Source of the DNA: an uncultured bacterium
GTDB lineage: Bacteria > Patescibacteriota > Gracilibacteria > UBA1369 > PNNO01
Length of the DNA: 32,000 nucleotides
Direction of reading: 5' to 3'
NCBI GenBank assembly: GCA_963704705.1
Contig: OY969931.1
Coordinates: forward strand, 900,001 to 932,000
Position 1 is the first letter of the stretch. Each line of letters opens with the position of its first letter. The notes under the pieces are model-generated. The model saw only the letters and a program-made list of their open reading frames with translations, was not told the origin of the DNA and did not search any database. Shown here one piece after another: positions 8,699 through 19,166 of this stretch. Made by a program: the position numbers and the translations under genes.

Positions 8699-9462
<764 letters not shown>

Positions 9463-9492: not shown

Positions 9493-12400
9493 ATGAAAAA
9501 TAGAAATTTACTCAAATTTTTTAATTATTTCGCATTAGAACAGCGAAATTTGTTCTTATGTGAAAGCAAACTTGCATTTAAAAATCCTAAGGCGGGAGTA
9601 AGTGCAAGCGCTGAAAGATTATCAGCAACTGAAAAGAAAGAACTTCAAAATAAGATTGAATTACAGAATAAACAAATACAGGCAAATGAGAAAAAACTAG
9701 AAGAATTTAATAAGATGCTTGATAAATTTTTTGTGAATAAAAGAACATTTGAAGTAAAAAATATTACAAATACAGCTGTTGTGCTTGAAGAGTTGATGGT
9801 TAATTCATCTGATTCCAGTTTATCGAAAGATAAGAACAGACTTGGTTATTTAAGAATGATGGCTAAAAATTTCAAATCTGCAATTCAACCACATGAGGCT
9901 GAATTAAAAAAACATCAACCTTTGAAAATAACTGTAAATCCGGGTGGAGTTATAGATTTTGCTGATTCAAAAAATCACAGATTACTAACAATCGATCTGA
10001 AAAAAGATTCATTTTATGCAGTATCAGTTGAAAATCTTAAGAGAAATATCGCAAATTTAAAAGAAAGAATCAAAGGGAAAAAAGAAGCTGTTGTAAGCCG
10101 CACACGCGAACAACATGTTTCGTATCGTGAAAATCTTGATTTGAAATCAAAATTTGGAAACTTACATGATGCGATTAAAGATTCTCCAAAACTTAAAGGC
10201 AAAGTTAAAGTTGTTCAAAACGGTGATTTCCAGGTTGTTAAATTCCTTGGAAAAAACAAAAAAGAAATTAAGAAAAATGAGTTGGCACTTAAAATTGAAG
10301 ACATTTACAACTTAAGCCTCGTAAACAGTTATCCTGATTCTGTTTTAAGAATTCAGGTTACAAACCCATACCAAGGGACTTATAAAGCAACTTATAACCC
10401 TCAGCGGGGCTCATTTTACATTGATGGCACAACTGAAAGAGCAAAAATTTATAATAACGGAAAAATTAAAGTTCTTGAATTTAGAGTTGTTCCAAAAAAA
10501 CCAAGATCAACAAAAGCAGCAATGAGCGGAGTTAAACCTGCTGAATCAAAGGCGGCTCAGGAAAAAGCAAAAAATGAAGCCTACGAGCAAAGGGAATTTG
10601 AAAAAGATCAAACAAAAGATTACTTATTCGACAAATACTACAAATATATTTTCAAAAAGGACCGTTTTGGCGGACATAAATTACTTCAATCAAAAGAAGA
10701 TTTTAAAAACTGGGGTAGATTATCTCATGTTTTAGGCCCGATTCTTGCTCAACCTCCATTCAACATAAGAAGATCATCATCAGAGCAAAAAAAATATATG
10801 GAGCTTGTAATTCAGGGAACCGGATTTTGGGATCCGAACTGGGAAATACAAGGTAAAGATTTCTTTAAATACGGAGGAATCCAATACAAAGGCGGATATG
10901 ATAAATTTGTTGAAGACTATGAAAAATTAACAAAAAAATACGATAAACTTGAGAAAGAAGGAAAAACTCTATCAGAAAAAGAACTGGAACAGCTAACAAA
11001 ACTCGAAGATATAGCAGTTGGAATCGCAAGAGTTTATGAAGCTCTTCAAACAATGAAACCATTAAAGGCTGATCAGGAATCTGAGAAAGAAAGACTGGAC
11101 AGAACAGTTCTGTTAAATGTACCTAAAGCAAACGAAACTGAATTAAAAGAAGTAAAATCAAATAGATATTTGAATTATTATTTGCCTTTATTGACTCATG
11201 AAAAAGAAACCACTTCTCATCAGGTAAATATTCTTGTTGGGTACTCAACAAACAAAAAACTTGTTCAATTAGTGCAACAGGCGATCAATTCAATTCCAAA
11301 AGGAATGATTAAAGAAGAGGTTTTATGGCAATATAAAATGAATCCTACAAAACTTCTGTTCTTAACATTTGGATTCGATTCATTGGTTGCTAAAGGCGCA
11401 ATTAAAAAAATTGACGATAAAAGATTTGTGCTTACCCAGACTCCTACAAATGCAAACTGGGCAATTGCGGCTTTAAAAATGCAGGGAGCTTCAAAAAACC
11501 CTGAATCAATGCAAAGCTGGGAAAAAGTAAGAGGTAAAGTTGATGCTCATCACAAAGCAGCAAACTTTATTAAAGCAATCTTTGGAGACAAAGAAACAAG
11601 TGTAAAAAATAATTTAAGAAGCAGATGGTCACGATTATGGCATTGGGAATGGGCAGATAAAAAATACGTGAGCATGGAAAATCTTGCTCAGGTTAAAACC
11701 TATGGTAAGAATGATTTCAATTTAGAAGCTGTTGAAAAACGCGGTTATTTGGATATGAAAGGCAAAGTTGCTGAAAGAGCCGGAGAAACCGGAATGTACA
11801 GAATTCCTGAAAAAAATCATGGCGCATTAATTAAAATGACAAATGATTATCTTGCAAAAGGTATTCAGATGACACTCGCAAATGCACCAAAAGGAAAAAG
11901 AAATGAAATTTTAAAAAACCTTACCAAAAAATTCGGAATTAATATTGAATTCGGAAAAGATGACGGAAAAATTGCAGCAGATATAGTTAAATTAATTGGT
12001 GTAAAAGGCTTAAATACTTCTGAACTTACTCCTGATAAAATCAAATTTATCAGACTTGGATTTTTGGAAGAAAGATACTTAAAAGCAGTTGAAAGTAAAG
12101 ATATGACAGATGAATACTTCTCTGCTTCACCTGAAATCAGAAAAATTCAGGACAAACTATATAAACAAGGTATGGCTTTAACTGAATTACCAAGAGTTGA
12201 AGCTGATATACATGCAGGATTAGCAGTGCTTGTTAAAAGCAGAGAAATAGTTGGTCCGGGCGGATTCGCTGGCTTTACTCTTAGATATAAAGCATTAAAC
12301 GGACATGAACTTTACACAACTGTTGGTCTTGGAGGATTACAATCCGGACTTACTGTATATGCAGCATTAGGCGCAAAAGTAAAATTAAGCGAAACATGGG

Positions 12401-15045
12401 ATTTATATATGGACGCAGGCGCAGCTGTTGGCACAGGAGGTGTCTCAGGAGGCGGAGTAGTAAGAATTGAAACAGGATTTACTCCAAAATCAGCAAACAG
12501 ATTTGGTTTGGGAGTTGGTGCAGGTGCAAGTATGGGTGGTGTTGGAATTTCATTATTGGCTTATTGGAGATATGACACTGATAAAGCCCTCGCAGAACAA
12601 ATAAACGAAGCAATGAAAAAATTCAAAGATATCGACGAAGAACCAAACTGGGAAAAGAAAGTTGAATTAATAAGAAAACATCCGCATCCAAGTATGAAAC
12701 AATTGGTTGCATATGCAGATAGATTATTCAAAGCTTCAGGAAAAGAATGCCCTCCAAAAATTCTTTACTTCTTATATAAAAGAACTAAAGGTAAAATCGA
12801 AAATGGGGTAAGATTAGACCAAAAACTTCCTGCAATAATTGGAGCAGGTGTTGGAGTTGGATTAACTCCTGTAGGAATTGGCGCAGGTCTTTATGTAACT
12901 TTCAAAATTCCTTGGACTGAAGAAGTTGTTGCTGTTAGAAGTCCAGTTCGAGGTTTTGACAGATACACAATGGAAAAAGAAGCTGAAGCAGATCTTAGTA
13001 AAGAATTAAAAACGCAGGTTACTTTAATTAAAGATTTTGAATTAAAAGGTGAAAATGCTTTTCTTTTTCATGATTCACAACTTGGAGGCAAAGGTTTGGC
13101 CAGAGTTGGTACTCTTCAAAGCAGCCAGATGGAAGAACTTTCAGCTGATTCAAGCTTTGAACAGATCAAAAAAATAATGGCAAGACTCAACATTGATGCA
13201 AAACTTGTTCCAAGAGATGCCAAAGATAAAAGTAAAGGTTACTACATACAAATTACACCATTAGATATAGAAGGTGGTAATGTTGAACTCCAGATTGACC
13301 CTGAACTTAGAAGCAAAGGACTTATTTTGGATAATCAAAGTACACCTCAAAGAATTTTATTAACTGCAAGTGCTGTTAAAGCATTGATGGTTACAAGAAA
13401 AAGAATTAAGTTCCCTTTCCAGTCACAAGGTGCGCTTAATTTGGATATTATTACATTTAAAACTGATACTGACAGACACACTCCAGAAATCAGAGAAGAA
13501 TCTGTACAGTATATATATAAAAGACAGGGTGAAAGATACCAGGTTGTTAACGGTGAGAATTCAAGACGTATTCCAAAAGACCTTAGAAACGTTATGAGCC
13601 TTGCGGAATTCCGAGGAAGCAGCAGAAAATTTGAAAAATTCGATAATGTACAACTAATTAATTATAGAAGATACAGAGAAGCTACCCAGTCTATGGACAG
13701 TGCTCTTCGGGTTCTTTCATCAAAAGAATTTGCTTTAAATCCAGGGAACACTCCACATTTAAATAAATTCGCAAGAAGATGGTACAGCTTAAATCAAAAT
13801 TACTTCTTACGAAAAATTATTGATATGAGAAAACCTGAAAGCGAAGACAGAATTAAAACACTTTTGTTTAATAAACTGGTAAAAGATTATGAAAGTTACA
13901 GAGCAAATATTCCTGGCACAAAACCATTAAGCCAGTATGAACAAAATATGCTCTATGCAATGCTTCTTGATAGATCATTCTTAAAAATTTCAAAAGAACC
14001 AACAAGAAGTATGCCAAAAGAACGTATTGAAAGAGCCTTGGATATCAGAAAAAGTTTATTTAGAAAATATTTAAATACATATATTAAAAAATGGATAGCT
14101 AAATATCCTAATGAATGGAATGAAATTAAAAAAGCTGATCCAGGCATAACTCCAGCTGCAGTAGCTAATCTTATTGCACTTGCAATGCCAAAGGATTACG
14201 CACACATGAAAGAAATGCTTCAGGAACCTACTCAGATTACTAGAGACATGAAATTCCTTTCTTACACTCAAAAATTAAGAAGTGAATCAATGCCTTCAGC
14301 TTATGGTGCTGCAAGCCCTGAGCCAATCAGAAAAAACTTCTTTAAAATGTTCGGGGTTACAAGATTTAATTTAAGTTCTAATCTTGATAAACGAAAACAG
14401 GCAGTAGCACGAGTTATTTTGAATCTTCTTTCACCATTACGTATGAGTGAACTTCAAAATAATAAAGAAAGAGTTGAGTTTTTGGATTCAGAATTACCTT
14501 TGATGCTTATATCTTTATATGATAAATCAAAAGGTATTTCTCCAATGATTGAAGTTCTTGGAATGGAAAATTTTGAAAACATGACAAAACTTTACAGTGC
14601 ACTTCGAAAAGAAAAAGATCCTCAAAAAGCAGCTGAACTATTAAAGAACAGTGCTATTAAAAAATCATTCGATGGATTTAGAGAAATGGTATTAAAAGTA
14701 CGAAACGCACAGCTTAGCGGGAAAAATTCAGCTGATTATAAAGGATTCACATTCCACTTCGACACTGAAGTAATGGCCGGCCCATACTTAAAATGTGCTA
14801 ACGGTACAATGGCTGTAAGACAAAGATTCAGAATTACAACAAAGAAAAGCTTGAGAGTACCTTGGACAGGTGCAAAAGCCGAAAGAGCAGTTGTTGTTAA
14901 AGGCCGATACAAGAAAGAAGCTGCATACCTTACACTTGCAGGAGGGTTCTTCTATAAGCCGGAAGTTAAACCTGAAAAACCTTATAACCCACCTAGCAGG
15001 CATGATGAGCCTGAAAAACCGTATACACCGCCTAGCAGGCATTAA
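9493..15045 (+). CDS. Giant orphan protein (1850 aa): Lys-rich and coiled-coil-rich, no signal peptide, central Gly-zipper/beta-strand-like module, C-terminal Pro-rich tandem ending in PSRH
   Basis: Uninterrupted 5.5-kb ORF. I recognise no catalytic motif. Only 3 Cys. Gly/Ala-rich hydrophobic block at residues ~904-1028 and 1112-1141. The C-terminus is ...KPEKPYNPPSRHDEPEKPYTPPSRH*. Confidence 0.8.
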   Translation: MKNRNLLKFFNYFALEQRNLFLCESKLAFKNPKAGVSASAERLSATEKKELQNKIELQNKQIQANEKKLEEFNKMLDKFFVNKRTFEVKNITNTAVVLEELMVNSSDSSLSKDKNRLGYLRMMAKNFKSAIQPHEAELKKHQPLKITVNPGGVIDFADSKNHRLLTIDLKKDSFYAVSVENLKRNIANLKERIKGKKEAVVSRTREQHVSYRENLDLKSKFGNLHDAIKDSPKLKGKVKVVQNGDFQVVKFLGKNKKEIKKNELALKIEDIYNLSLVNSYPDSVLRIQVTNPYQGTYKATYNPQRGSFYIDGTTERAKIYNNGKIKVLEFRVVPKKPRSTKAAMSGVKPAESKAAQEKAKNEAYEQREFEKDQTKDYLFDKYYKYIFKKDRFGGHKLLQSKEDFKNWGRLSHVLGPILAQPPFNIRRSSSEQKKYMELVIQGTGFWDPNWEIQGKDFFKYGGIQYKGGYDKFVEDYEKLTKKYDKLEKEGKTLSEKELEQLTKLEDIAVGIARVYEALQTMKPLKADQESEKERLDRTVLLNVPKANETELKEVKSNRYLNYYLPLLTHEKETTSHQVNILVGYSTNKKLVQLVQQAINSIPKGMIKEEVLWQYKMNPTKLLFLTFGFDSLVAKGAIKKIDDKRFVLTQTPTNANWAIAALKMQGASKNPESMQSWEKVRGKVDAHHKAANFIKAIFGDKETSVKNNLRSRWSRLWHWEWADKKYVSMENLAQVKTYGKNDFNLEAVEKRGYLDMKGKVAERAGETGMYRIPEKNHGALIKMTNDYLAKGIQMTLANAPKGKRNEILKNLTKKFGINIEFGKDDGKIAADIVKLIGVKGLNTSELTPDKIKFIRLGFLEERYLKAVESKDMTDEYFSASPEIRKIQDKLYKQGMALTELPRVEADIHAGLAVLVKSREIVGPGGFAGFTLRYKALNGHELYTTVGLGGLQSGLTVYAALGAKVKLSETWDLYMDAGAAVGTGGVSGGGVVRIETGFTPKSANRFGLGVGAGASMGGVGISLLAYWRYDTDKALAEQINEAMKKFKDIDEEPNWEKKVELIRKHPHPSMKQLVAYADRLFKASGKECPPKILYFLYKRTKGKIENGVRLDQKLPAIIGAGVGVGLTPVGIGAGLYVTFKIPWTEEVVAVRSPVRGFDRYTMEKEAEADLSKELKTQVTLIKDFELKGENAFLFHDSQLGGKGLARVGTLQSSQMEELSADSSFEQIKKIMARLNIDAKLVPRDAKDKSKGYYIQITPLDIEGGNVELQIDPELRSKGLILDNQSTPQRILLTASAVKALMVTRKRIKFPFQSQGALNLDIITFKTDTDRHTPEIREESVQYIYKRQGERYQVVNGENSRRIPKDLRNVMSLAEFRGSSRKFEKFDNVQLINYRRYREATQSMDSALRVLSSKEFALNPGNTPHLNKFARRWYSLNQNYFLRKIIDMRKPESEDRIKTLLFNKLVKDYESYRANIPGTKPLSQYEQNMLYAMLLDRSFLKISKEPTRSMPKERIERALDIRKSLFRKYLNTYIKKWIAKYPNEWNEIKKADPGITPAAVANLIALAMPKDYAHMKEMLQEPTQITRDMKFLSYTQKLRSESMPSAYGAASPEPIRKNFFKMFGVTRFNLSSNLDKRKQAVARVILNLLSPLRMSELQNNKERVEFLDSELPLMLISLYDKSKGISPMIEVLGMENFENMTKLYSALRKEKDPQKAAELLKNSAIKKSFDGFREMVLKVRNAQLSGKNSADYKGFTFHFDTEVMAGPYLKCANGTMAVRQRFRITTKKSLRVPWTGAKAERAVVVKGRYKKEAAYLTLAGGFFYKPEVKPEKPYNPPSRHDEPEKPYTPPSRH
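14971..15042 (+). repeat. Two 33-nt direct repeats separated by 6 nt, encoding PEKPY(N/T)PPSRH x2 at the C-terminus of the giant ORF
   Basis: cctgaaaaaccttataacccacctagcaggcat (14971-15003) and cctgaaaaaccgtatacaccgcctagcaggcat (15010-15042), separated by gatgag and followed by the TAA stop. Confidence 0.9.
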
Positions 15046-15077: not shown

Positions 15078-15575
15078 ATGAAAAACAAAAATGGCAAAAC
15101 AAAAGGCCTATTCATAGCAGTCGCAGTACTTGTAGTACTAATATTTGCAGGCAGTCTGCTATATCTAAACTCACTTAAACCAATTGTTAAAATTGTAAGT
15201 GATAAACCTGCATATTTTCATACTGATGATCCTCAAATCGAAATTATGCTGCTTAATGCTAAAAAAGCTGATTCTGGATCAATCAGAATTAGTTATGATG
15301 ATAACATCCTGAATTTGGGAGCAAATGAATTGAGCCAAGGTGTAACAATGGATGAACTTCAAAACAACCTAATTTTTAATCTTTCAGAGGATTATTTTAG
15401 TAATAAAACTGACAGTGTTGCTAAATTGACTTTCAATTTTACTGGGGATGCAGGAAAAACCGAAGTAACTGTAGATGAAAATGAATCATTTTTAAATATA
15501 AAAGGTGAACAAATGCCAATCTCAAAAGCTGAAAACGCTTCATTTACAATTGGCGTAGCCCCATCTCGTCATTAA
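15078..15575 (+). CDS. Small N-terminally membrane-anchored protein with a cohesin-like beta-sandwich pattern, ending in PSRH
   Basis: The basic N-terminus MKNKNGKTKG is followed by one hydrophobic helix, LFIAVAVLVVLIFAGSLLYL. IRISYDDNILNL, VAKLTFNFTGDAGKTEVTV and ASFTIGVAP resemble cohesin-domain strand patterns, but the match is weak. The C-terminus is ...GVAPSRH*. It lies 32 nt after the giant ORF. Confidence 0.6.
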   Translation: MKNKNGKTKGLFIAVAVLVVLIFAGSLLYLNSLKPIVKIVSDKPAYFHTDDPQIEIMLLNAKKADSGSIRISYDDNILNLGANELSQGVTMDELQNNLIFNLSEDYFSNKTDSVAKLTFNFTGDAGKTEVTVDENESFLNIKGEQMPISKAENASFTIGVAPSRH

Positions 15576-15596: not shown

Positions 15597-18500
15597 ATGA
15601 AAACAAAAATTAAAATCCTACTTATTTCAGCTCTCTCATTGATGGCCGTAGTAACTGCATCCATTGCAAATGCGGGCTGGAATGCAAGCCCAGCTTCCGG
15701 ACAAACTTGTTACGGTCAGAATTGCAAAACCTGGCATAATAATGGAATCCAGCGTGAAGGGGCTTATAAACCTGGTACAAATTTTGCAAGTTTCAATAAT
15801 TATACTGACTCAACAGATAATTCAGTACCAAAACAGACATACACTGAGCAACAATTTTTATTGTTTGAAAAAGAATATGCAAATTCCAGCGGTTTTCCAT
15901 ATAAAACTCCTTGGGATGCAAATCGAGCTACACCTTATAATTTTAACAGCGGCTCAAGTTATAATATAAATTTTGTAAATAATCAGCCTCAAAGAGTTGG
16001 ATTCTGGATTTATATGCATAACAATGGAGTGGAAAATCAATACCCTGCTAATAATACAAAAGTTAAATTAATTCCAAATAAAATAAGTGGAAATACATAC
16101 AGACCTACTTCAACAATCACAGCAAGCAATGCAAAGCCAACAAATGTTATATCTGATGTTAATTTAACTGCAAATCAGGATTTTAATTTAATCCCTAAAG
16201 AAGTATGGGTATCAAGAGAAGACGGAGATGAACAAATGAATTCAGCTGAATTAAATGACTTACTATCAGCAAATGGTTTATTGGTAGGAAATTTAAGAAA
16301 TACTGATGGGACCTTTAATTCTTCTATACTTCACTATGTAGTCGTTTATGTTGAATTCGAAGCTGTACCTCAAACTCCGCCAGCAGAATGTAAATCATTA
16401 AATATTACTGACCCTAGCCAATTATTGGTAACAGTTGATCAAAACGGTTTCAACAACGAAAATTTAGCGTTCACTGTTGATAAAGATAATGGTGCTGTAA
16501 GTGCTTACAGAGTTCGATCAAATAACGGAACAATTACATTTAATAATGGTGGATCAAATATTCAATTAAATGAGGTTAGTAATGTAAATCAATTTAATGC
16601 AACTATGGATGGCGGCCCATCTAGTCCAAATAATAATGAAACTGTTTGGGTAAGTGCATTAAGACCAAATGGCACTGCATGGCCTGATTGTATTGATTAT
16701 TTCACTGTTCAACTTGAAGAAGAACAAGCTCCTGTTTGTGAGGTTTTCGGAACAAACCCTGGAAGTTTGGGTAGCCAACAGGTTGATATTGGTGTGACTA
16801 CAATCGAATTGAATGGTCCAACTGATACAAATGGAGACCCTTACAGACCTAACGGACAAATTCCAAATATCAGATATTGTTATACAAATGATGGAATTAC
16901 ATTTATGCCTTATTCAGGAAATGTAGTTCATCCAGGTGGCGACTTGCGATGTGCAATTGCACCTTTAACTGACCCAATGGTTGTTGATACAACTCAAACC
17001 GGCACAATGACTATCGAAGTTGTTGGTGCTGAAGATGATTGTAACGATATGTTTAAAACTGATTTCCAATACGGTGGCAAATGTTTACTCCTTGAATTCC
17101 GTCAGGATGAATTCACTAATGACAGAACTCAATATTGCGTAAATTTAAATGTTGAGCCAACAGTTCAAGGTTACAACGACCATATTTTATGGCAGGTTGA
17201 ACGTGATGGCGACACTGTACTTTCAAAAGATACTACAAACACTTTATGTATTGATCTTGATGATTACAACTATAATTTTGAACCTGGCGACACTCTAACT
17301 GCTCAGGCTCTTGATATCGATTATGAAGATGCTGCTTGTGAAGACAGCATAGGAAGTAGAAACCTTGTTTGTGACTCAATGGACTTAGATAAAGCTCATT
17401 TTGAAAGAGGTCAGGATAACGAAGTTTGCATAACTGACATTAATCCTGATGATTATCCTGCAAATGAAGTTGATTTAACAACTGATTCAGGCGAATCTGA
17501 CACAGTTCCTGTTGATGAAGATGGATGTTTTGTTATTAATGAAAATTTATTGACAGATGCAAACAGAGTTGATGTTTTCCTTGCTGATAAGTGTGAAGAT
17601 TCTTTAACAAGGGAAGTTAAACCTCCTACTTTCAGCAAAAACGTTAAAGATCAGGACGTAGGCGCTGTATTTGCTCATCGAGCAATCGCTAACTGGACTG
17701 ATGAAAAAGTATTCTACCAAATTAAATACGAACACAAAGACGACACTGCACAGGATGTAACAATCACCGATACAATCGGCACTGATGATTATATTCAGGG
17801 TTACATTGCTGATGTAAATGATTCTGATCTTTCAAACAATGAAGAAGGCGGAAGAATTTACTATGATGATGGTTCAATGAATGTTTATGTTGAAGGTGAA
17901 GGCAACATTGGAAACTGTGAAGATACAAACGATAACATTTGTTACTATGGTGATATCGGCAGTACAGGTGGTGTTACAGTTAAAAATGTACCTCCAAGAC
18001 GTGAAGTTGTTGTAAGTTACACAGGAGAAATAGTTGATTCATCTGTTAATCCTTCAAACTGTTCTAAGCCTGATGGATTAGGAAATGATATCTGTGGTGA
18101 AGTTTATCCGAACACTGCTGAATTTGAAGATGAAACTCCTTTCAGCGGCAGAGATAAAGCTGAAGTTGTTATTCCTTGTCCTTTCTTCATTATAAGATCA
18201 GGTGGCGAAGTATTCATGGAAAATCCATTTGATTATGGTGTTGATACCTTGGCTTGTTCTGAAATTGAAAATGTACCAAGTCCGTTCATTGTTCCTGATT
18301 ACACTCCTCCTCAAACTACACCTTCAACAGGTGCACCTGAAGGAATTGCACTTATAAAGACTTTGGACGATAGATTATGTAAATCTGATTCTGCTCAGGA
18401 AGCAGGATATGGAGGCGTAAGCAGAGCTTCATCATTAATTTGTGAAGTTACACTTAAAACTTCTGAAGAACTTACTCAATATGTAATTTCTCAGAATATC

Positions 18501-19091
18501 CAAAGAAATATAGATTTATTTGCAAGATACGATAAAGATTTAAATAACAGAGTTTCTGTTAACGGAAGCAGTGATCTCCCTTCAAATACAAGCAATGTAT
18601 TTGTTAAAGATAACGGAGACCTTGAGTTAAGCGGAACATTCAATAATGGCGCTCAGACAATCGTTGTTCTAAACCACGATGTAAAAATTACAGGCGATGT
18701 TAAGCTTGATGATACATCTGCAATTTTAAGCGACCCAAGAACTATTCCATCGCTTGCAGTAATTGTAATTGGCGGAGACATTCTTGTTCAGCCAAATGTT
18801 GGCGAAACAAACGGCGTATTCTTTACAATGGAAAATGCTGAAGGCAAAGGCGGTCAAATGTGCGAAAAAGACTGCGTTGACGATGATGCATTAAGCAGAT
18901 TCAACGACAAACAATACGTTCACTATGGATCAATCTACGGCGATATCGAACATTTGTTCAAATACAGAACATTCGCAGGCGATCCAACTAAACTTGAAGC
19001 AGCAGTATTAATTAAATTCGATTCACGAATCTTCTTAAATACTCCGCCGCTTCTAAATGAACTTATAAATGTAAGTCAGCAAGTGTTCTAG
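15597..19091 (+). CDS. Secreted giant orphan protein (1164 aa), acidic, Asn/Asp/Thr-rich, Cys-rich
   Basis: Sec-type signal MKTKIKILLISALSLMAVVTASIANA|GW. About 26 Cys by my count, an even number. Repeated modules start with Cys. Residues ~680-830 resemble a DUF11/CARDB-type beta-sandwich only loosely. It starts 21 nt after the previous gene. Confidence 0.8.
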   Translation: MKTKIKILLISALSLMAVVTASIANAGWNASPASGQTCYGQNCKTWHNNGIQREGAYKPGTNFASFNNYTDSTDNSVPKQTYTEQQFLLFEKEYANSSGFPYKTPWDANRATPYNFNSGSSYNINFVNNQPQRVGFWIYMHNNGVENQYPANNTKVKLIPNKISGNTYRPTSTITASNAKPTNVISDVNLTANQDFNLIPKEVWVSREDGDEQMNSAELNDLLSANGLLVGNLRNTDGTFNSSILHYVVVYVEFEAVPQTPPAECKSLNITDPSQLLVTVDQNGFNNENLAFTVDKDNGAVSAYRVRSNNGTITFNNGGSNIQLNEVSNVNQFNATMDGGPSSPNNNETVWVSALRPNGTAWPDCIDYFTVQLEEEQAPVCEVFGTNPGSLGSQQVDIGVTTIELNGPTDTNGDPYRPNGQIPNIRYCYTNDGITFMPYSGNVVHPGGDLRCAIAPLTDPMVVDTTQTGTMTIEVVGAEDDCNDMFKTDFQYGGKCLLLEFRQDEFTNDRTQYCVNLNVEPTVQGYNDHILWQVERDGDTVLSKDTTNTLCIDLDDYNYNFEPGDTLTAQALDIDYEDAACEDSIGSRNLVCDSMDLDKAHFERGQDNEVCITDINPDDYPANEVDLTTDSGESDTVPVDEDGCFVINENLLTDANRVDVFLADKCEDSLTREVKPPTFSKNVKDQDVGAVFAHRAIANWTDEKVFYQIKYEHKDDTAQDVTITDTIGTDDYIQGYIADVNDSDLSNNEEGGRIYYDDGSMNVYVEGEGNIGNCEDTNDNICYYGDIGSTGGVTVKNVPPRREVVVSYTGEIVDSSVNPSNCSKPDGLGNDICGEVYPNTAEFEDETPFSGRDKAEVVIPCPFFIIRSGGEVFMENPFDYGVDTLACSEIENVPSPFIVPDYTPPQTTPSTGAPEGIALIKTLDDRLCKSDSAQEAGYGGVSRASSLICEVTLKTSEELTQYVISQNIQRNIDLFARYDKDLNNRVSVNGSSDLPSNTSNVFVKDNGDLELSGTFNNGAQTIVVLNHDVKITGDVKLDDTSAILSDPRTIPSLAVIVIGGDILVQPNVGETNGVFFTMENAEGKGGQMCEKDCVDDDALSRFNDKQYVHYGSIYGDIEHLFKYRTFAGDPTKLEAAVLIKFDSRIFLNTPPLLNELINVSQQVF

Positions 19092-19135: not shown

Positions 19136-19166
19136 GCAAATTGCTAGCTAAATGCTAGCTTTTTGC
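19136..19166 (+). terminator. Intrinsic-terminator-like hairpin after the three-gene block
   Basis: GCAAA-tt-GCTAGC-taaat-GCTAGC-tt-TTTGC, with a T5 run on the 3' side, 45 nt after the stop at 19091. The stem is short and AT-containing, so its strength is uncertain. Confidence 0.4.

Follow-up and report, generated by a model that had tools for sequence, protein, structure and literature searches.

What does a porin-like stretch of sequence do in the middle of a very large protein that has no signal peptide, in a bacterium that seems to possess a single membrane? This question is raised by a 32,000-nucleotide stretch of DNA from an uncultured, ultra-small bacterium of the Gracilibacteria (contig OY969931.1, positions 900,001 to 932,000; hereafter the window), where an orphan open reading frame of 1850 residues, P0001, occupies positions 9493-15045 of the plus strand, which also holds its two neighbouring genes and the promoter-like and terminator-like sites described below. 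The original prediction, made on the letters of the sequence, had singled out in this translated frame a Gly-rich amphipathic region (residues 904-1141, positions 12202-12915, by peptide placement), and had read it either as a small OmpA/OmpX-like beta-barrel or as glycine-zipper helices. Our analysis favours a monomeric, outer-membrane-protein-like barrel made of residues ~897-1141, which would act as a self-inserting membrane module; we regard this reading, in which insertion and the identity of the membrane are inferred, as about evenly poised.

Sequence pattern of the module

The nine segments quoted in the original prediction were found in the protein precisely where it had put them (residues 904-916, 924-935, 938-950, 952-966, 969-982, 986-996, 1003-1015, 1016-1028 and 1112-1141). 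Glycine accounts for 26 of the 128 residues between 901 and 1028 (20%), against 89 of the 1722 residues in the rest of the protein (5.2%). When the protein was cut into 100-residue bins, bin 901-1000 was the least charged (17%) and the other bins contained 25-36% charged residues.

The alternation of hydrophobic and small residues was measured as a hydrophobic moment of period 2. Over residues 901-1028 its mean was 1.118, compared with 0.674 ± 0.114 for 2000 shuffles of the same residues, only one of which reached the observed value (z-score 3.9). The helical moment, at 100 degrees, was 0.533, below the shuffle mean of 0.747 ± 0.082. The alternation is thus real, and it is strand-like. The GxxxG/AxxxG spacing that had been noticed in the same segments did not stand: GxxxG was present 8 times, for 5.0 ± 1.8 expected from shuffles, and [GAS]xxx[GAS] 16 times, for 17.1 ± 2.6, so that neither was enriched. 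The resemblance to a glycine zipper arises because Gly occupies every second position.

Two faces of very different composition result from this alternation. Over the ten predicted strands (see below), the hydrophobic face has 60 positions (V15 A12 L11 I5 G4 F3 W2 Y2 T2 M1), and its only charged residue lies at an edge. The opposite face, of 67 positions, contains 26 Gly and 17 charged residues, together with T5 Y5 S3. Among the 18 sequences of the family, the middle third of the hydrophobic face was 78% aliphatic and 0% charged, and the charge-free belt of the module is ~10-14 residues long. Aromatic residues of this face were gathered at one end of the strands, called here the cis end (28%, versus 11% and 5% further in), where they adjoin charged residues (for example in LRYK, YWRYD, TFKIPW and ETWDLY). 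On the other face, Gly made up 44-45% of the middle and far thirds, and the cis mouth was 46% charged.

The Gly face was also the more conserved, with an entropy of 1.81 bits versus 2.09 bits for the hydrophobic face. In 17 sequences that are 20-25% identical, it had 20 columns with one residue at 70% or more, of which 14 were Gly; an alignment of homologues, proposed with the original prediction as a check, therefore bore out the conservation of the glycine pattern. The hydrophobic face had four columns at this level, including an invariant W1025, and its aliphatic residues were interchangeable, as expected for positions facing lipid.

The same unsupervised dyad analysis was applied to a small set of yardsticks, four E. 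coli outer-membrane proteins (OmpX, the transmembrane part of OmpA, OmpW and NanC) and two soluble barrels (Blc and LolA). The period-2 z-score was 4.1-5.3 for the module, 1.0-3.9 for the outer-membrane proteins, and 0.6 and -0.4 for Blc and LolA, respectively; two distant relatives taken from a 16-sequence alignment of the module gave 4.1 and 6.0. Gly on the polar face amounted to 30-32% in the module, 10-21% in the four outer-membrane proteins and 3-10% in the soluble pair, and charge on the hydrophobic face to 3%, 2-10% and 11-12%. In its two-face composition, the module is more outer-membrane-protein-like than the real E. coli ones, and it is unlike Blc and LolA.

Predicted fold and structural neighbours

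Two constructs were submitted to AlphaFold2 (AF2). The short one, residues 860-1200 with a 4-sequence alignment, gave a mean predicted local distance difference test score (pLDDT) of 68.9 and a predicted template modelling score (pTM) of 0.53. In this model, eight strands of 11-16 residues (b1-b8) cover residues 901-1028 (window positions 12193..12576) as four amphipathic beta-hairpins, a region on which the dyad analysis and a sub-threshold Pfam match to OMP_b-brl also bear. A fifth hairpin, b9-b10, covers residues 1115-1138 (12835..12906), with PV as its turn; it was predicted in both AF2 runs and corresponds to the last segment of the original prediction, LPAIIGAGVGVGLTPVGIGAGLYVTFKIPW. The pLDDT of the strand blocks was 71-83 for b1-b8 and 64-77 for b9-b10. 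Between b8 and b9, AF2 helices and composition define a charged four-helix insert with an isoelectric point of 9.5 (residues 1029-1114, positions 12577..12834), its four helices (residues 1029-1108) having pLDDT values of 60-85 in this model and 58-82 in the long one. All turns on the far side of the short model consist of two residues (SR, QS, TG, MG and PV), and the loops on the other side are of 4-6 residues, plus the helical insertion of 86 residues. Since the number of strands is even, the helical insert and the two flanks, of 900 N-terminal and 700 C-terminal residues, would all lie on the cis side.

The long construct, residues 861-1850 with an 11-sequence alignment spanning 27-91% identity, again gave b2-b10 and the helical insert, with unchanged boundaries. 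Strand b1 (residues 901-915) is uncertain, being a strand in the short model and a helix in the long. The pTM of the AF2 models was 0.47-0.53. In distant homologues, the turn of the last hairpin is polar (KTDQG, SPDIANT), and such a polar centre fits a hairpin rather than one helix. Structure prediction, which had also been proposed as a check, returned the strand ladder twice, and no confident soluble fold. On these models, the predicted strand ladder is reproducible, and its closure into a barrel is likely, with moderate confidence.

When the short model was compared with the PDB by Foldseek, only transmembrane barrels were found at high probability. The porin KdgM (E-value 6.4×10−4) was accompanied by OmpX, the designed 10-strand barrel TMB10_163 (TM-score on target 0.71-0.73, root-mean-square deviation 3.9-6.7), the invasin beta-domain, Ail and OmpA. 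Against BFVD, the neighbours were phage-encoded porin, outer-membrane-protein and autotransporter barrels, with E-values down to 6.6×10−6 and TM-scores on target of 0.58-0.70. With the long model, the best PDB neighbours were again KdgM and NanC (TM-scores on target 0.58 and 0.45). Outside the barrel, the C-terminal 990 residues matched no PDB fold in Foldseek.

At the sequence level, the only family matched was Pfam OMP_b-brl (PF13505), over residues 927-1029, with E-values of 1×10−4 to 1.6×10−3, below the cut-off. The module in the giant protein was the only OMP_b-brl-like match of the whole genome. PF13505 was matched at an E-value of 1 or less by one of the 11 family members, and PagL by one relative (E-value 0.013). 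The giant protein gave nothing useful in NCBIfam, PHROGs and PADLOC, and PDB sequence searches, with the single sequence and with the family profile, returned no match. Taken together, the AF2 ladder, the Foldseek neighbours, the face composition, the conserved Gly and the sub-threshold OMP_b-brl match lend the barrel reading of the original prediction support at moderate confidence.

Among 401 sampled Patescibacteria genomes, PF13505 was matched above cut-off in a single one, by a protein of ~250 residues with a signal-peptide-like N-terminus (L022, G461:C48:6142-6798, 49.7 bits); this assembly consists of 120 contigs and the gene could be a contaminant. A literature search for barrels in Patescibacteria found nothing relevant.

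Family, locus and cell envelope

A word-based search retrieved three close homologues of the giant protein. Exhaustive HMMER searching with the module profile, among 1.84 billion representatives, retrieved 11 proteins, ten of them giants of 1399-2446 residues and the other a 229-residue fragment. Full-length giants carry the module at the corresponding position, and the module was not found at this sensitivity as a free-standing gene or in other architectures. Over 301 genomes of the class, matches were confined to the family of the window's organism and to two other families of its order. The divergent module alignment has no conserved stretch of 7-10 residues. In two very distant relatives from other families of the order (L009 in G267 and L010 in G214, with open frames of 2291 and 1606 residues), the Gly-rich hairpin ladder and the helical insert are kept despite a nearly lost sequence identity.

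At every locus recovered, the giant gene was placed between tpiA and holA, followed by genes for a 165-residue and an 1164-residue protein. The giant protein was 26-30% identical across lineages whose housekeeping neighbours keep 50-92% and whose secreted 1164-residue neighbour keeps 40-47%. Over syntenic loci L011-L019, identity ranged from 91-97% for SigA, 74-87% for the Mur ligase and 56-79% for tpiA to 39-47% for the 1164-residue secreted protein, 32-40% for the 165-residue one and 26-68% for the giant. The fixed synteny together with this low identity indicates that the giant gene is vertically inherited and fast-evolving. A phage tape-measure-like gene or a defence island was considered and rejected, given the fixed housekeeping site and the lack of PHROGs and PADLOC matches.

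The organism itself has a genome of 1,374,545 bp, in a single contig and 99.4% complete. Omp85/BamA, LpxC and secretins were searched for in it and none was found, under conditions in which control genomes gave the expected positives. The related loci belong to Candidatus Peribacteria, Candidatus Peregrinibacteria and the Patescibacteria group. The monoderm envelope that the original prediction had considered, for the case of a bacterium of the Candidate Phyla Radiation (CPR), is in keeping with both observations. A single-membrane cell is therefore well supported, and the presence of an outer membrane in this organism was rejected for lack of Omp85, LpxC and secretin. Peptidoglycan synthesis, S-layer genes, a sortase and type IV pili are encoded in complete Peribacteria genomes, as are numerous large extracellular proteins that are often rich in Cys; fatty-acid synthesis is absent, most amino acids are not made, and the lifestyle is probably symbiotic (PMC4736985).

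As had been noted, the giant protein has no N-terminal signal peptide, and the same is true of its 11 homologues. In the first 60 residues, the maximal 10-residue Kyte-Doolittle mean was 0.29-1.56 in these 12 proteins, versus 2.63 and 3.70 in the exported or anchored neighbours. What nearly all family members keep, even when their N-termini are otherwise unalignable, is a motif E-[S/N]-[K/R]-L-x-F-[K/R]-x-P at about residues 15-30 (here residues 22-30, window positions 9556-9582), for example CESKLAFKNP, AENRLAFKKP, KENRLIFKKS and GESKTVFRNP, with no hydrophobic h-region behind it. This motif could be a recognition or processing signal for non-Sec export. About 44 kb upstream of the window, a 787-residue open frame contains a VirB4/CagE-like ATPase match (L021, G000:C1:856223-856627) which, with its neighbours, scores 23.9 bits, above the Pfam cut-off. 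A type-IV-secretion-like export route, independent of signal peptides, is conceivable on this basis.

The giant gene is the first of a compact three-gene block. Ahead of it, a sigma-70-like promoter, TTGACT-17-TAAACT with a TG extension, was recognised at 9434..9462 by consensus match only, as was the terminator-like hairpin and T-run that closes the block at 19143..19159. The open frame of the second gene (15078..15575) encodes the 165-residue protein, with an N-terminal membrane anchor and a C-terminal PSRH. That of the third (15597..19091) encodes the 1164-residue protein, acidic and Cys-rich, with a Sec-type signal peptide. The PSRH tail is common to the giant protein, which ends in ...PPSRHDEPEKPYTPPSRH (15031-15042), and to the adjacent 165-residue anchored protein, which ends in ...GVAPSRH (15561-15572). 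The rest of the window is housekeeping: sigA, dnaG, truB, Mur ligase, hpf, tpiA, holA, glnA and gatCA, with ftsX, recO and relA/spoT parts.

Within the giant protein, the module is flanked by ~900 N-terminal and ~700 C-terminal residues, and both flanks are basic (isoelectric point 9.7-9.8). The best-predicted part of the C-terminal half is at residues 1746-1821 (positions 14728-14955), and the pLDDT blocks immediately before it are at 87-95. At its end, a sheet of four to five strands holds G-P-Y-L-K-C-x-N-G-T, the most conserved motif of the family and the sole peptide conserved enough to seed a scan of the genome collection. No PDB fold was matched by residues 1746-1821.

Proposed mechanism, alternatives and known systems

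We propose that five hairpins, of ten strands of 11-16 residues, would form an antiparallel barrel with an 80-residue helical cap between strands 8 and 9. Most of the giant protein would remain on the near side, and the bilayer would be crossed only by the tight tips of the hairpins. The aliphatic belt would lie in lipid, and the Gly-lined interior would form a narrow lumen. The aromatic collar and the clustered charges would mark the cis mouth, on the entry side, where the charged helical insert is a candidate cap or plug. The scheme resembles that of beta-pore-forming-toxin stems and outer-membrane proteins, except that a single chain would supply all ten strands.

That the hydrophobic face points outwards, around a Gly-lined interior, is a part of the proposal that we find fairly probable. 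The charge-free belt, the one-sided collar and the interchangeable aliphatics fit a lipid-facing exterior. Strongly curved small barrels need inward-pointing Gly, and the conserved Gly of the other face fits such an interior.

As there is no outer membrane, beta-barrel assembly machinery (BAM) or signal peptide, the target would be either the membrane of another cell or the organism's own cytoplasmic membrane, reached from inside. In the first version, the protein would leave the cell by non-Sec export or by lysis, and its barrel would then penetrate the outer membrane of a Gram-negative partner, either host or prey, to serve as an anchor or as a nutrient or lipid conduit. This fits a symbiotic lifestyle, the fast evolution of the protein and its two exported neighbours, and also the 165-residue neighbour in particular, which shares the PSRH tail and whose C-terminus should lie outside according to the positive-inside rule. 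In the second version, the barrel would enter the cytoplasmic membrane from the cytoplasm, and the C-terminal half might be passed outward through it in autotransporter fashion. No export signal is needed for this, and the very basic flanks agree with it; the presence of the PSRH tail on an anchored neighbour facing outside bears on this version too. We place the foreign-membrane version somewhat ahead. In either version, the picture of a porin-type barrel that inserts itself without BAM, carried within a giant effector or anchor protein by a CPR symbiont with one membrane, is tentative and rather doubtful.

Several observations weigh against the membrane barrel. In the long construct, the pLDDT of the strands was only 46-67, lower despite the deeper alignment, and the Foldseek matches of that model had E-values of 0.055 or more. 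Closure of the barrel and the orientation of its faces are inferred from how the strands are composed and conserved, and from the kind of structures that resemble them. Aromatics make up only 10-12% of the hydrophobic face, versus 18-26% in real outer-membrane proteins, the yardsticks being just four plus two proteins, and the collar is found on one side only. The PF13505 cut-off of 28.7 bits was missed by the full protein (19.1 bits), by the excised module (23 bits) and in the genome scan (20.8 bits). With the 16-sequence module profile as query, hhalign gave probabilities of 0.8% against a genuine Patescibacteria PF13505 protein, 0.2% against OmpX and 2.2% against NanC; homology to known outer-membrane protein families was discarded at this sensitivity. 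To these points are added the missing Omp85/BamA, LpxC, secretin and signal peptide reported above. Finally, and this concerns the own-membrane version, we know of no beta-barrel integral protein of a bacterial cytoplasmic membrane.

Rather than spanning a membrane, the ladder could be a soluble barrel or half-barrel with its aliphatic face inside, enclosing a hydrophobic cavity, for instance for binding or transfer of lipids or isoprenoids (as in LolA, lipocalins or AsmA/VPS13-type grooves); its Gly-rich face would then lie outside and pack onto the helical insert or onto further domains of the giant protein. This would agree with the absence of a signal peptide and of outer-membrane machinery, and with the lower pLDDT of the long construct. 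A rough volume estimate is compatible with a filled 10-strand barrel, and the FMO protein and lipovitellin, present among the lower-ranked Foldseek matches, are open sheets around hydrophobic ligands. Peribacteria, being devoid of fatty-acid synthesis, must import lipids (PMC4736985). We consider such a barrel unlikely, because its exterior, with 44-45% Gly and 8% charge in the middle and far thirds, would be a very unusual soluble surface, and because conservation is higher on the Gly face, which would have to be exposed. Blc and LolA have no significant period-2 moment, and their Gly and charge figures are unlike those of the module. Strands of 11-16 residues, two-residue turns and top neighbours that are membrane barrels, with no lipocalin or FABP folds, also speak against it.

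The pattern statistics fit equally well a pre-stem of the beta-pore-forming-toxin type, in which hairpins are stored on a soluble protein and released at the target membrane to build an oligomeric pore. Central Gly-rich amphipathic hairpins in a soluble protein are the signature of alpha-haemolysin and aerolysin stems, AF2 was run on the monomer only and with moderate confidence, and the fast evolution of the giant protein relative to its housekeeping neighbours is what an interaction or arms-race protein would show. However, no cap, rim, aerolysin, MACPF, leukocidin or other toxin domain was detected in the giant protein by Pfam, NCBIfam, PDB sequence search or Foldseek, and the protein lacks a signal peptide. 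Its five tandem hairpins suffice to close a barrel, and the AF2 model matches monomeric barrels of 10-12 strands. A pre-stem is therefore improbable in our view.

It could also be that the region has no defined fold, and that AF2 over-interpreted a Gly-rich linker that is flexible or prone to aggregation. Shallow alignments (4 and 11 sequences), and the modest pLDDT of the long construct and pTM given above, leave some room for this. We rate it lower still, given that the strands retain their register and dyad pattern, along with 14 Gly columns and W1025, in 17-18 sequences at 20-25% identity, that the position of the module does not differ between the family members found, and that two constructs with two alignments led to the same strand boundaries. 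Last, glycine-zipper transmembrane helices packed through GxxxG/AxxxG, to which many G-x-x-x-G pairs seen by eye and two hydrophobic stretches (1003-1025 and 1110-1138, with 19-residue Kyte-Doolittle maxima of 1.48 and 1.69) had lent credit, were rejected as highly improbable, since motif counts are at shuffle expectation, the helical moment is below that of shuffles where the beta moment is well above, a single 19-residue window exceeds 1.6, both AF2 runs make beta-hairpins of the two stretches, and the centre of 1112-1141 is a polar turn in distant homologues.

Transmembrane beta-barrels are considered characteristic of outer membranes, in diderm bacteria, mitochondria and plastids, and of secreted pore-forming toxins. 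If the membrane barrel is right, a conserved ten-stranded porin-like module within a giant protein that lacks a signal peptide would place this fold in a new context, and the own-membrane version would be the first case in nature of a beta-barrel protein integral to a bacterial cytoplasmic membrane. A self-inserting barrel whose neighbours are a secreted, Cys-rich protein and a docking-like protein tethered to the membrane would be a candidate contact or uptake device, and would bear on how Peribacteria cells physically tap a partner. Should it be instead a soluble barrel with a hydrophobic cavity, the module would still be a candidate lipid-handling domain in a lipid-importing organism. The isolated module, of ~250 residues, can be cloned.

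The fold type as such is known. It is the context, an internal domain with a helical insert in a signal-less giant orphan of a BAM-less, single-membrane lineage, that appears undescribed. The small monomeric outer-membrane barrels of diderm bacteria, namely OMP_b-brl proteins, OmpX and the N-domain of OmpA (8 strands), and KdgM and NanC (12 strands), are, like the predicted module, up-and-down antiparallel amphipathic meanders with strands of 11-16 residues, joined by tight turns at one end and by longer loops at the opposite end. They share with it a charge-free belt, an aromatic collar, a Gly/polar face, which would be the inner one in the module, and strand motifs of the x-G-A-G-x-G kind. 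Unlike them, the module is internal to a protein of 1850 residues, with 80 helical residues inserted between strands 8 and 9; it has neither signal peptide nor terminal beta-signal, and the genome is devoid of BAM, lipopolysaccharide and secretin. Its strands number 10 (perhaps 11), instead of 8 or 12, and it has more Gly and fewer aromatics. KdgM, although the top structural neighbour, differs by its 12 strands and by the lack of a sequence relationship.

In inverse autotransporters (intimin and invasin), a barrel precedes a large C-terminal portion, as is proposed for the giant protein, and the invasin beta-domain was the fourth PDB neighbour. These proteins have 12 strands and depend on Sec and BAM to reach the outer membrane of their own producer, prerequisites that are absent here, and no LysM or Ig-like passenger domain was found in the giant protein by Pfam.

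Two further systems do without an insertase. The stems of alpha-haemolysin and aerolysin are, as in the module, central Gly-rich amphipathic hairpins amid soluble protein, and beta-pore-forming toxin stems enter a foreign membrane with only their hairpin tips crossing the bilayer. These toxins have one or two hairpins per subunit, oligomerise, and carry signal peptides and cap/rim domains, whereas five Gly-face amphipathic hairpins are predicted here in one chain, with a period-2 z-score of 3.9-5.3. Designed transmembrane barrels, TMB10_163 (PDB 8uzl) and TMB2.3 (6x1k/6x9z), offer the best geometric match (TM-score on target 0.70-0.73, root-mean-square deviation 3.9-6.7), and have ten strands, short hairpins and a Gly-rich/polar lumen in common with the module. 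They are artificial, free-standing and evolutionarily unrelated to it, and such designs fold in vitro without BAM. The module is thus not demonstrably a member of any described family; it would work like, and probably looks like, a small outer-membrane barrel.

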